DNA of 64,000 nucleotides, from positions 333,870,001 through 333,934,000 of the forward strand of contig CM097883.1 in assembly GCA_044892505.1 (NCBI GenBank). The letters run 5' to 3'. The position numbers were made by a program, and so were the translations under genes. Within the stretch, counting starts at the first letter, position 1, and each line of letters begins with the position of its first letter. The notes beneath the pieces are model-generated. The model was given only the letters and a program-made list of their open reading frames with translations, was not told the origin of the DNA and did not search any database. This DNA is from Schmidtea nova. Taxonomy: Eukaryota. Below, one piece after another: positions 12,401 through 48,473 of this stretch.

Positions 12401-13192
12401 ATAAATGTGTATTTTAGATTGAGTTCTGTGCGTGATTTTAACAAGTATTAAATATAAATAAAAATAATTTGTTTGCTGAAGTAATTTAATTAAATTGGGA
12501 TTTTAATATAATAATTTAGTATAAAGAGACCAATGGTACGACAAGTAAAGGTCTTCTATCGACCGAATGAACCCGTCTGGGCAAGAGGGGAATAGTATCC
12601 ACTCAGGTTGCTCATCTGCCATTTGACATACACCGTTTGGTACATTACCAACGTGAGGTGCAATTATGGGTTTTCCACGGGTACCATCGCGAGATTTACG
12701 ATTTTATGGTAGTGGAGTTTGCCCTAATACAAGATCAAAAAAAACTCGTCACAACAACTGAAGGATCAAATCTGACCCATCACATTGAAAAAGTGGGCAG
12801 CTCAAGATCTTCAACAAGAGAAACCAAAACAGAATTCTCCCTCGCTAACGAGACGCCGACCTCGATGGCAGCACTCACAAATCAGCCAACAAACGGAAAG
12901 GGTCAGAAGCCAAAGCATAGAAACAGACTAGGGGCAAAACGACGACGAGAGCGGCGAGCTTTCGCTGAACGGCTTAACGACAAGTAAAGGTCTTCTATCG
13001 ACCGAATGAACCCGTCTGGGCAAGAGGGGAATAGTATCCACTCAGGTTGCTCATCTGCCATTTGACATACACCGTTTGGTACATTACCAACGTGAGGTGC
13101 AATTATGGGTTTTCCACGGGTACCATCGCGAGATTTACGATTTTATGGTAGTGGAGTTTGCCCTAATACAAGATCAAATAAAACTCGTCACA
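12099..13192 (+). repeat. A-B-C-A'-C' internal duplication in the LTR-like unit
   Basis: 12099-12325 repeated at 12752-12978; 12538-12753 repeated at 12977-13192; I noticed one substitution per pair. Confidence 0.9.
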
Positions 13193-13517
13193 CTACACAC
13201 CCAACAGTAGCCAATATTACACTTATTATAAATATTTTAAAATATTAGCGAAATTTCATATTTTCTTGATTAGTAAAATCTTATTTTATCAGTGTTAAAA
13301 ATCCCAAGCGTTAAGTTATAAATTTTTGTTTGTACAAAATAAAAATCATATTAAAAATTAAAACATCAAATTCTTTTAATTTGTCAAAAAACATCAATTT
13401 ATTTACCTTCACAGCGGTATTTTAAATGGTATTTTTTATTTTTCTATTTTCGCTTTGAGACTTTAAATTTTTAGCCTTTTGCTTTATGATAATGGAAAAC
13501 TTGAAAAATAAATAGCA

Positions 13518-13565
13518 ATGATTTGTGATGTTATGCCAACAATTTCAGAAGATGCGAATTCTCAG
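13518..13565 (+). CDS. PPFIA: liprin-alpha coding exon 1 (MICDVMPTISEDANSQ)
   Basis: Matches the conserved liprin-alpha start MMCEVMPTISE; GT donor at 13566. Confidence 0.85.
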
Positions 13566-44541: not shown

Positions 44542-47270
44542 CAGGGGTGTCCAACCTTTTAGCCTCCCTGGGCCACATTAGACACAAGATGAGTTGTTTT
44601 GGTCCACACAAAAAAAATTCACTTACACTAATAATGTCTGATGAGAAAATAAAACTTATGTTATATAGTTAACATATACATAAATATGTAAATACATAAA
44701 TTTTATATATTTATTAATTTCTTATTCCAAAGTAAAAGACAAAACCAAATTCAGAAATTAGTGAGACACTTGACTTTGTTTTTGATATACTAATGCGTCA
44801 ATATTTGCTTCGATGGAAGTAGTTGCGATTCTTAGTGATTGCTCAAGGTGCTCATCAGATAGTTTCGTTCTATTTATATTCTTTGTGTGCTTCATCCGTG
44901 AAAATAACTGCTCACAAATGTAGGTGCTTCCAAATAGCGATGACATAAATAGGGCATGGTTGTGAAGCGAGAGATATTTTTCTTTGGGAAGATATATCTT
45001 ATAAAAGTCGAGTAAAGAGACTTGATGAAATTTTTCTTTAAGTTGAATGTCAGATTGTAACTCTATGCATTCTATTTGAAAATTGGCTAATATTAAGTTA
45101 ATTTCGAGTGAAAAGGAGTCGCAAATATACCAAAAAGTAGATCATTTTTCCAGAAATCTTGGAACCTATTCTCAAACTCTTGTATCAAATTGGAAAGCAA
45201 AGTTACATATTTTTCGTTGTTCAGAGGACCGTGTTTCGCCAACGTGTTGAAATGCATAAAATTGTTTGCCTTAATTTGTGATTGCCATAATTTCAGTTTC
45301 ATTTCAAATGCTGATATGGTTTGAAACATTGTATTTATAAGTTGGTCTTTACCTTGAAGACTCAAATTTAACTCATTAAATGAGTGGTCAAGTCTACTAA
45401 AAATGCCAAATCGGTGAGCCAGTGTTCATTGTTAAGTTCGGGCACAAATTTCGTTTTCGATTCCATAAATGACTTGATTTCATTTTGCAAATCATAAAAT
45501 CTTTTCAACATGTTTCCCCGGCTTAACTATCTAACTTCCAAAAAGTAAATGATATCCCCATATTCCTTATCCATAACTTTAAGAAATTCCTGGAATTGAC
45601 GATTATTCAATCCCTTGGCTCTTATAAATTTTACAGCGTCGATGACTATCGGCATCACGTTTCATCTTTAAACATTTTGCGCATAAAGTTTCCTGATGTA
45701 CTATTCAGTGATATTTTATAAAACGTAAATTTTGTGCAGCAAATGCATCGTCTTCTACTAATTTTACAAGTCCTTCTCGTTTACCTACCATTGCCGGAGC
45801 ACCATCAATTACTATTCCAGACATATTCGCAACGGACAAAGAAAATCGTTTTAGTCTAGTTTTCACTGCTTCATACAAATCTCTTGATTTAGTCGTGTCT
45901 TTTAATGGCACTAAAGAAGCCATTTCTTCAGTGACGTTATATTCTTCATCAATACCTCTAATAAAAATTGCCAATTGAGTTGTGTCAGTAGCATCAGTAC
46001 TTTCGTCTATCGCCAAAGCATAAAATTTAAAATTAGCTGCTCTACTCTCCAAACCTGCTTCGACAGATTTTCCGATTTCTTCAATTCGCTTGGCTATTGT
46101 CTGGTGAGGCAAACTGATTATAGAAAATTCTTCTTTTTTATCAGGGCAAATTATATCTGCAACGCTTTCCATGCATAGCTTAATAAACTCACCATCATCA
46201 AATGGTTTGGAGTTTTGTGCTATCAAATTTGAAACCACATAACTAGCTTTTACGGTTGAAACCTTTTGAGTTGTAATTTTTAAAAAAAAACTTTGTTGAG
46301 ATGATAGACTTTTTCAATTCTGCTATTTTGTCTTTACGACACATTCCTTGATATGAATTAAATTTACTAGCCTGTTTTTGCGTATAATACCTCTTCAAAT
46401 TGTAGACTTTGAAAACAGGTACAAATTCCCGACAGATTAAGCACATTGCCTTAGTATTTGCCTCAACAAAAAAGTAGTCATCTGTCCACTTTTCGTTGAA
46501 CAATCTTCTTTCTTCCATAATTTTTCTCTTTCTTTTTCGTTCGGTTTCTTTTTGTGGCGCTGTGGAAGCCATGCTGAAATTAAAAAGATTGATAAATATT
46601 TTTAAAATGCAAATAAATACCCCTCGTGATATTATTTTAAATTTGCCTCCTAAATTTGTTGTTTAAGTTGGTAATGCCAATAAACATTAAATTTGAAAGC
46701 ATTTTAATAAATTTTAGAATTTGATACAACGAAATCATTTTTTTTAATTTAGACTCTAAATTAAAAAAATGATTTCGTTGTATCAAATTCTAAAATTTAT
46801 TAACAGGTTTTAAGATTACTAAAAAATTTTTTAAATTTTATAAAAATTTCAGAAGCACAAAAATGTACTGAAAAATGCACATACTTCAAAATGTTGTACT
46901 TACGTACTGAATCTCATAAAAATGTACTGGATTCAGTACAATTGTACTGAAACGGTAGCACTACCTGTTTGCCAGCTATCAGAAAAGCGAGTTACCGCGT
47001 GCTTTAGACTTAAAAATCCCGTAGTACAAGTGCAACACTGGTACAAGAGCACATTGAAGATTAAACGCAACAGCACTAACATAATGATTAGAGATTGTTT
47101 GAGAATAATTTTATGAATTATTATAAATTAATAGCTTCATTAAGTTGAAGTTTTATTTTTAGTGTTATTAATGGTATTTGCAGCCGAAATCACTCATAAT
47201 TTGTGGAAGTTTACGATTTGTCGTTGGGCCGCATTCATAGCAGTCTTGGGCCGCGGGTTGGACAAGCCTG
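44542..47270 (-). mobile_element. Complete but decayed hAT transposon (SPIN/Charlie/GTF2IRD2-like)
   Basis: TIRs CAGGGGTGTCCAACC / GGTTGGACAAGCCTG; perfect TSD ATCTACAA; FNEKWTDDYF..CLIC; ALAIDESTD..QLAIFIRG; IDGAPAMVG; SLFGSTYICEQLFS. Confidence 0.93.
46704..46803. repeat. Near-perfect 100-bp AT-rich palindrome inside the hAT 5' region
   Basis: About 50-nt arms around a single C at 46754; one T bulge. Confidence 0.9.
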
Positions 47271-48147
47271 ATCTACAATATTGAAAAAGATAATGTTTTG
47301 AAATTTTCTGTAGATTTTATCTTTAAAATGATTGCTTTTCTTTTTATACCATTTTCTATTCTATTGCATATAATGACGTCACATAGCCTTAATTTCGCAA
47401 AGTTTACTAACGATTCAAAACCCTTATTTACGGTATTTCACATTTATTTATCAATATTAACAAGTTGTGGAAATAAAATGAAGTTAACAAGTCAGGAATC
47501 GAGATGCATTTTGGGTTTTCATAAAATAAATTTGCCTTGCCCTCTTGAAAACATTCCAGCAGGCACCCATGTTCTATGCCATAAGTGTCTAAACTTTAGC
47601 CTACTGGGGACCATATTGAGAACGGGGGATATTTCACTCTGCCGTACATACGATATGCTTTTAAATAAACTAAAAAATCAACAAAAAAATGTAAGATATG
47701 CTATCTGGAATCAAAATAAAATTTTAATTGTTAAATGTTTTATTATTACAATTTCAAAACAAAAAAACCAAAACTAATGCGATGGAATGGAATGAATTTG
47801 TTTTTGTTTGACTAGTAAATGTTTATCGTGTTCGATTGACGGACGAGGTTGCAATTCTTAATGAATCTTCAAGATGTTTGTCATTTATCTTCGTTCTAAT
47901 ATTGGTTATAAGATATTAGAATATTTAAATACTGCACATAAGAAATTTTAATTGAAATCAAATAAGCTTTTTTAAATTTATATAATATTTTTAAACATAA
48001 ATAATGGTTTTGAAGAAAAATATGTAATTTTAAATATTTTCATGATTTTGAATTATGCTGCATTTAAAAAGATTTTGGTTCGGCCTGTGGAGCACAATTT
48101 AGACATGAATCATCTTTGTGATTTCTTTTGAATAATTTCCTTGCGCT

Positions 48148-48473
48148 TGTTGATTTTATTGGTTGTTGCGAAATTATTATTTGTTTACTAGGGATTACTA
48201 CAACCCATAGCCCTTCATAAATATTAATTACTCACTCGTGTACCCATAGATGTTCCTTGGCCAACTATTTTAGTACTGTACACGGTGGAGAGAATCTAGT
48301 GAGCAGATGAGCTTCGTTGCCAAAACTACTCCTCACTATATTCTCTCTTTCGGGTTCCTGTTGCCGATAGAAGGACTTATGCATATATCTACTTTTCGGT
48401 CTTCTCGCTTTTTTATTTTCTATCTCTCCCTAATTTTACCCTATCTCAGATCTACGCTTATTTATCCCCAACA
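48148..48473 (-). mobile_element. 326-bp cargo-free LTR-like unit (copy G) of the D/E/F family
   Basis: Minus strand starts TGTTGGG and ends TCAACA; conserved motif AAGTCCTTCTATCGG..GAACCCG..GAGGAGTAGT..GCTCATCTGC at 48302-48379; TSD unclear (GCGCT/GCTCT). Confidence 0.72.

Follow-up and report, generated by a model that had tools for sequence, protein, structure and literature searches.

A predicted covarying RNA fold at the 3' ends of LTR-like units in a genomic window of Schmidtea nova

The long terminal repeats (LTRs) of non-vertebrate retroelements are usually regarded as fast-changing promoters with little common structure. Here we analysed a 64-kb stretch of the Schmidtea nova genome (GCA_044892505.1, contig CM097883.1, positions 333,870,001 to 333,934,000 of the forward strand), which we call the window and number from its first letter. 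The window is 29% GC; many remnants of transposons lie in it, as do exons of a liprin-alpha-like gene. Four LTR-like units in it share a short motif close to their 3' ends, and this motif proved to be the beginning of a longer stretch with a predicted covarying RNA fold.

Results

LTR-like units in the window

Unit U24 (22160..24766, + strand, 2607 bp) has the ends TGTTG...CAACA and a 4-bp target duplication, TTAT, and unit U26 (26467..29583, − strand, 3117 bp) has the ends TGTTGGG...CCCAGCA and the duplication AATT. From the TG...CA ends and the 4-bp duplications, we infer that both are long solo LTRs. Unit F (7581..13206, +) runs from TGTTGGGTG to CACCCAACA with 9-bp inverted ends; CCAA is found at its left flank and again 4 nt past its right end, that is, as a duplication shifted by 4 nt. 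F contains a broken set of Gypsy-type genes for gag (DUF7041; Pfam E 8.9e-07), protease, reverse transcriptase (RT) and RNase H at 8458..10914 (+), which possibly represent a nested unrelated element, together with a fragment of open reading frame (ORF) B, a copy of ORF A and a duplicated motif. The remaining unit, G48 (48148..48473, −), is a short unit or a 3' fragment with a possible TGTTG start at 48473, and neither a target duplication nor a remnant of ORF A or ORF B was found for it. TG...CA ends with short inverted repeats are thus present in F, U24 and U26, with the start of G48 uncertain, and unshifted 4-bp duplications are present in two of the four units.

The unit boundaries were compared with contigs from four sequencing runs of one study. 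A contig joint falls exactly at 26467 in three of the four runs, on a side of just 21 letters. In addition, one single-copy contig crosses the junction between RNase H and ORF B in F without differences, demonstrating that this junction is real.

A motif at a fixed distance from the unit end

The pattern CTTCTAWCG-n-AACCCG-n-GCTCAYCTG had five exact matches in the window and none in 100 dinucleotide shuffles (mean 0.00, maximum 0). The recurrence described in the original prediction was therefore confirmed, and its coordinates needed only small shifts, with AAG located at 12548, 12987 and 24544 on the + strand and at 26699 and 48378 on the − strand. The copies at 12548 and 12987 are one tandem duplication in F (12538-12753 = 12977-13192; 216 nt, 99.5% identity), leaving four independent copies, one in each unit. 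The spacers, given earlier as 4-8 and 14-20 nt, are actually 3-7 and 11-16 nt, and the word GRGGARTA is not common to every copy as had been claimed, because the copy at 24544 reads AGGGAATA.

The motif is just the first ~75 nt of a feature that spans 220-233 nt from AAG to the unit end. The terminal CA lies 220 nt from AAG in the 12987 copy, 223 nt in U24, 233 nt in U26 and ~231 nt in G48, in agreement with the 220-235 nt proposed before; this distance does not apply to the 12548 copy, whose 3' tail was lost at the duplication junction 12753. Downstream of the motif, GGGYRC and TTTATG are kept in all four copies at near-constant spacing and the conservation runs on to the unit end. GGARTA and GCTCA are separated by 20-21 nt, CTGC and GGGYRC by 57-59 nt, and AAG and the end of TTTATG by 161, 160, 162 and 163 nt, despite the ORF A proteins being only 26-38% identical. 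About 30 letters within 75 nt are invariant and are grouped in a bulge and an internal loop. Pairwise identity obtained with the same aligner is 0.61-0.73 for the core and 0.47-0.59 for the 100 nt upstream.

The whole feature occupies 12548..12753 (+) in the first copy of F, truncated at the junction, 12987..13206 (+) in the second copy of F, 24544..24766 (+) in U24, 26467..26699 (−) in U26 and 48148..48378 (−) in G48. In the second copy of F, AAG is at 12987, AACCCG at 13009, GGARTA at 13028, GCTCAYCTGC at 13049-13058, GGGYRC at 13118 and TTTATG at 13142-13147, followed by a terminal stem at 13148-13196 and the unit end CCCAACA at 13206. From GGARTA to the terminal stem, the same elements are at 24584, 24605-24614, 24672, 24698-24703 and 24706-24762 in U24; at 26657, 26637-26628, 26569, 26543-26538 and 26532-26475 in U26; and at 48332, 48312-48303, 48245, 48221-48216 and 48205-48161 in G48.

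Near the end of F (12096-13192), the sequence jumps back into ORF A at an att-like CAACA and rejoins 10 nt upstream of AAG; this duplication may have arisen when the template was switched close to the 5' end of the RNA. A lone AAG-nn-CTTCTAWCG block lacking the rest of the motif was detected at 51810..51823 (−), on the same strand as G48 and 3.4 kb upstream of it. This block is a possible remnant (0.012 expected by chance), and a covariance model gave it just 9.4 bits (E 2.2).

The spacers form paired stems in a fixed register

The spacers had been regarded as merely unalignable sequence, but they turned out to be base-paired stems in a fixed register. A long stem with covarying arms, P3, encloses an invariant 4x6 internal loop in which GARU stands opposite CAYCUG; the invariant letters are found in this loop and in the 5' block. 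When positions were counted without gaps from the invariant letters, 25/28 cells of the inner stem P3b and 18/20 cells of P3 outward were canonical, and 8 of the 12 rungs of P3b and P3 were altered on both sides. In shifted registers, 8-14 of the 28 and 7-11 of the 20 cells paired. For the 8 variable rungs, 28/32 cells paired, compared with 14-20 in nine arm swaps that left no unit its own arm. The R and Y of the loop occur in all four combinations, meaning that these two positions do not covary with each other.

Other helices surround this core. A long-range helix, P2, joins ACCCG with YGGGU ~105 nt downstream (20/24 canonical cells, zero two-sided changes), further hairpins follow downstream of it, and UUUAUG is computed to be single-stranded at its fixed distance. 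The terminal stem joins the last bases before the att end; it is built from four different letter sets, and in each of the four units it stops 4-13 nt short of the terminal CA. A GNRA tetraloop caps P3b in two of the four units.

We also compared duplexes of anchor-defined segments. The cognate arms ranked 1/24 for P3 outer, P3b, P4 and the terminal stem, and two control pairings ranked 10 and 16 of 24, although these ranks are not clean probabilities because the helix segments were picked after the folds had been viewed. Folding z scores were −0.4 (F), −1.6 (U24), −1.2 (U26) and −5.2 (G48) for the sense strand and −0.2 (U24), +0.8 (U26) and −1.9 (G48) for the antisense strand, so that the sense strand was better in three of the four units and equal in F. 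RNAalifold on a plain MAFFT alignment recovered the downstream helices only, with two-sided changes in 9/20 pairs; P3 was missed because of gap placement.

Three other readings were considered and rejected: a main fold made by a local CCC-GGG hairpin, because P3 covaries better; an S-turn/loop-E motif, because AGUA is present in just two of the four units; and an antisense splice donor, because GT is absent from two of the four units.

From AAG as far as the unit end, the whole stretch behaves like a single structured RNA with a predicted covarying fold. Of the roles that the original prediction had offered for the motif, a structured RNA in the repeat (R) region of the LTR is the one supported by our results, through the compensatory pairing and the position beside the att end.

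ORF A and ORF B

In U26, ORF A (26883..27476, −, 198 aa) and ORF B (27637..28113, −, 159 aa) are open. Homologues of ORF A lie at 23988-24404 (+) and, with a frameshift, at 11829-12397 (+); those of ORF B lie at 23283-23723 (+, with an internal stop) and at 10953-11120 (+, a fragment). The structure model of ORF A consists of long helices and a disordered linker (pLDDT 71.5, pTM 0.29). In all three copies of ORF A, a basic part of the C-terminal helix is followed by a leucine-rich part, a layout that, as we see it, recalls Rev/Rex-type proteins. Sub-threshold Pfam matches were to bZIP_1 in F (E 0.01-0.02) and bZIP_2 in U24 (E 0.023), with none in U26. A response element for ORF A/B, another role offered in the original prediction, is thus a candidate only, as these matches suggest binding to DNA no less than to RNA.

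The ORF A sequence had no match in a word-index search, among 1.84 billion representatives, in full-length Pfam or among PDB sequences; no match was found in the atlas (best 0.87) and no fold match in PDB or BFVD. ORF B had no match in any sequence search run, Pfam included, and its structure model was unusable (pLDDT 37.7). By these searches, both ORFs are orphans.

Promoter-like, poly(A) and splice signals

The first ~400 nt of U24 and U26 are related (61% identity over 380 nt, E 1.6e-13) and include a CCAAT/TATA-like block, whose TATA-like part reads GATCAGTAYAAATA at 22545..22558 (+) in U24, with a counterpart at 29213-29200 (−) in U26. Near AAG, TATA-like words occur at −28 in F, at −9 in G48 and, as TATAT, at −77 in U24, and there is none within 120 nt in U26. 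The TATA-like words that had been noted just upstream of the motif in F and G48 do exist, but at −28 and −9 they cannot serve the same start. The proposal that the motif is the true core promoter was not supported, as the TATA distance is not shared and the better promoter-like block lies near the 5' ends of U24 and U26. AATAAA follows both ORF B and ORF A and is 91-126 nt upstream of AAG in the three units that bear ORF A.

Several further signals were seen in the same units. An inverted repeat surrounds CCAAT in the promoter-like block of U26 (29213-29240, −); it is a possible DNA target of ORF A and, in our judgement, resembles a bZIP (C/EBP-type) site. The donor-like word AG/GTAAC is present at matching places upstream of ORF B (23030, +, in U24; 28679, −, in U26), which suggests spliced ORF B/A messages. 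Splice acceptors before ORF A and ORF B were visible by eye but failed a strict scan. GC-rich patches (22800-22880, +, in U24; 28830-28910, −, in U26) follow the TATA-like block at a distance of ~300 nt downstream; each overlaps a short frame of 30-36 codons, and they may represent a third cassette or another RNA structure.

Database and literature searches

An Rfam search of the whole window gave 26 weak matches, with zero on the motif, and four local searches (300-350 nt, E 10) gave one or two unrelated weak matches each, with no ribozyme or small nuclear RNA (snRNA) family among them. A covariance model run across the window found only the five copies used to train it, the next scores being 10.6 bits or less. 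Outside the window, two motif patterns had 2 and 4 stretches in viral contigs, and metagenome contigs had at least 116 stretches, for which the pattern was too loose; the GGARTA block was in 0 of 118 outside matches, among the matches listed. The covariance model applied to 86 of 122 outside loci gave one match (18.6 bits, E 0.098) with its pairs broken. Among the matches listed, none outside the window was a true copy. Searches of the open-access literature listed no description of the motif, with repeat databases (Repbase/Dfam) and subscription journals outside the scope of this search. As judged from sequence, the feature is a covarying RNA fold without an Rfam match in an undescribed LTR-like group.

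Surrounding genes and transposons

Exons of the liprin-alpha-like gene lie on the + strand at 35621-36052, 58162-58542 (Pfam LIP-1) and, recognised by eye, 39919-40356; the introns are very long and filled with transposons. G48 is located within an intron of this gene, and an element with inverted ends of ~200 nt is directly upstream of G48. A Penelope-like element at 36967-39926 has a 732-aa RT frame between perfect inverted repeats of 830 nt, and the whole-window search gave no Rfam ribozyme match in it. Decayed frames at 4670-7520 look by eye like a packaging ATPase, an integrase and a capsid-related gene, presumably of a Polinton/Maverick. A second decayed LTR-retrotransposon gag-protease with a zinc-knuckle-like word lies at 59500-61000 (−) without the motif. 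DNA transposon remnants at 41281-46662 and 49006-50393 comprise Tc5/pogo-like DDE_1, an HTH_SB-like frame and a DUF4371 frame.

Discussion

The RNA probably acts on the element's own RNA, in control or processing, and not as a DNA promoter. We tentatively favour the interpretation that it serves as a RexRE/TAR-type cis element for protein docking in the R-U5 (repeat and unique 5' region) part of long LTRs, with a confidence slightly short of even. The motif would be the core of a cis-acting structured RNA at the R-U5 end of unusually long LTRs, and the owner of these LTRs would be a host-restricted, probably Gypsy-type, group of retroelements. An internal promoter would lie in the unique 3' region (U3) along with ORF B and ORF A as two accessory genes, each with its AATAAA; with these in U3, the folded domain would open the genomic RNA and be repeated at its 3' end. 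The invariant loop and the 5' block may serve as the docking site, and the partner may be a host factor or else ORF A through its basic helix. With the protein docked, full-length RNA would be licensed for export and for 3'-end formation even though the U3 genes have poly(A) signals, and the terminal stem may take part in priming or strand transfer during reverse transcription. Parts of this scheme have precedents in the literature: long LTRs with ORFs and R-U5 stem-loops (PMC2664473), the RexRE in the 3' LTR, the long structured R of HTLV/BLV and the foamy-virus internal promoter (PMC12789967), and extra ORFs expressed by splicing in rotifer LTR elements (PMC5408684).

Several observations count against this interpretation. 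The pairing evidence comes from only four independent copies, the stem arms are biased towards purines or pyrimidines, and an arm swap between two units alone still pairs 26/32 cells. In the duplex comparison, with its segments chosen after the event, P1b ranked 14/24 and the local 5' hairpin 4/24, and the overall folding z is weak in F, U24 and U26. The AATAAA at 91-126 nt is too distant for a simple HTLV-style loop-out to bring it to the usual 15-23 nt. The weak bZIP likeness of the ORF A helix favours DNA binding. Neither a full-length element with two LTRs nor a primer-binding site or polypurine tract was seen within the window. Finally, the sequencing runs cover the gag-pol of F at far greater depth than ORF A/B, as far as summed contig depth, a poor measure of copy number, can tell; this gag-pol may be nested in F and not owned by the family of the RNA.

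The main alternative is a new RNA-processing motif, either a self-cleaving ribozyme or a fold that blocks 5'-3' exonucleases, which would make the genomic 5' end from read-through of the ORF A poly(A) signal. A promoter at R would not be needed, and cleavage in both LTRs could yield a retrozyme-like circle. The ~30 invariant letters in 75 nt, grouped in a bulge and an internal loop with fixed geometry, would suit such a motif, as would the lack of a shared TATA near AAG and the AATAAA 91-126 nt upstream of it, past which read-through RNA would face attack from its 5' end. P2 and a GYRC/GYRC helix cross, so a pseudoknot may form. Precedents for this logic, not for the fold, are the hammerheads of retrozymes, located in LTRs with 4-bp duplications (PMC4918200), and the twister variants that occur at the 5' ends of retrotransposons at a near-constant distance from AUG (PMC8501958), and one loop strand resembles the GCUCA strand of ribozymes of the twister-sister-like kind (TS-like) (PMC11620745). 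However, no Rfam ribozyme family appeared even at E 10 in the whole-window or local searches, the TS-like loop is not reproduced (the equivalents of G36, C37 and A12 differ, and that of G7 is in an invariant U-G pair), and cutting the 3' LTR where R starts would lose the terminal redundancy unless the RNA circularises or the 3' copy is incomplete. We consider RNA processing of this kind unlikely.

It is rather improbable that the fold is a leader translation element, IRES-like (internal ribosome entry site) or acting through an upstream ORF, that sets the ribosome on the AUG of UUUAUG. This AUG is fixed at 160-163 nt from AAG and 11-18 nt past the closing helix, but the frame that it opens is just 5-11 codons long in U24, U26 and G48, in F it leads into an open frame that is unrelated, and it adjoins the terminal stem.

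We also think it quite doubtful that the blocks are a DNA core promoter or an array of transcription-factor sites (the E-box CAYCTG, a TGAGC half-site and TTTATG) that a bZIP-like ORF A might read. The invariant words and their fixed spacing, the weak bZIP likeness and a pyrimidine-purine step at AAG or one base before it in all four units are in line with a promoter. Compensatory pairing of the spacers is not explained by it, however, and an E-box would not require base-paired flanks, which makes the DNA reading of CAYCTG weak; in addition, the TATA distance is not shared and the promoter-like block found 2-2.5 kb upstream is stronger.

There is little to expect from a stand-alone small RNA gene, either a mimic of an Sm-class snRNA (U1/U11-like) or an RNA polymerase III (Pol III) RNA of the VA/EBER kind. 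The arrangement of a closed multi-branch domain, a single-stranded U-rich stretch and a hairpin on the 3' side recalls, to our eye, the layout of Sm-class RNAs, and GCUCAYCUG appears complementary to the 5' splice-site consensus. Against this, neither the whole-window nor the four local Rfam searches gave an snRNA match, the strand that resembles a splice site is internal, with part of it paired, and the U-tract is interrupted; for Pol III, internal T4 runs are present in two of the four units (F and G48) and G48 ends in T3 only. Neutral shared ancestry, with the blocks as residual homology and the stems as over-fitting, fits the small number of copies and a core identity modestly above that of the upstream 100 nt, but it is highly improbable given the two-sided changes in 8/12 rungs at a fixed register and a terminal stem built from four letter sets.

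One fold and an invariant loop have been kept across four lineages whose ORF A proteins are 26-38% identical, in LTR-like units that reach 2.6-3.1 kb and bear two orphan genes in U24 and U26. If the RNA is a response element, regulation in the style of complex retroviruses would have arisen separately in a retrotransposon lineage. If it cleaves itself or blocks a nuclease, it would be a new functional RNA class, a prospect to which we give a small but real chance, and processing at this site would let an LTR element define its genomic 5' end without a promoter at R, a new way to start a genome.

Among known RNAs, the loop can be compared with those of twister-sister and TS-like (LINE-1, OR4K15) ribozymes, in which a GCUCA strand likewise faces UAG, with a variable stem on either side (PMC11620745). 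Of the 11 letters of the TS-like loop (G7-C8-U9-C10-A11-A12 opposite G36-C37-U38-A39-G40), 8 are present in three units and 7 in U24. In that source G7 of the TS-like loop takes part in a base triple; the loop here measures 4x6, and its G7 equivalent pairs with an invariant U. Plant retrozymes are alike in that a structured RNA is nearly the sole sequence shared between LTRs, in their 4-bp duplications and in their link to Gypsy elements (PMC4918200). They differ in their hammerhead core, which is absent here; the units described here code for proteins and are ~10 times longer, and cleavage is a candidate activity for them.

The R region and Rex response element of HTLV-1 and BLV share with our units a long structured LTR RNA, an upstream poly(A) hexamer and a candidate basic partner encoded by the element (PMC12789967). 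Sequence similarity to them was not found, the host here is an AT-rich eukaryote, the hexamer here is 39-126 nt upstream, and the candidate partner is weakly bZIP-like. Accessory genes inside the LTR are also a feature of MMTV sag, lentiviral nef, BFV and HML, but those ORF-bearing LTRs, as far as the source covers them, are 0.5-1.3 kb, whereas the units here are 2.6-3.1 kb, contain two orphan genes wholly inside and have 4-bp duplications (PMC2664473). The foamy-virus internal promoter for tas/bet offers a parallel for accessory genes with their own promoter-like block (PMC12789967). Lastly, F has the DUF7041 gag, protease, RT and RNase H of Ty3/Gypsy elements with this gag type; such a gag-pol is a candidate member of the family that owns the RNA.

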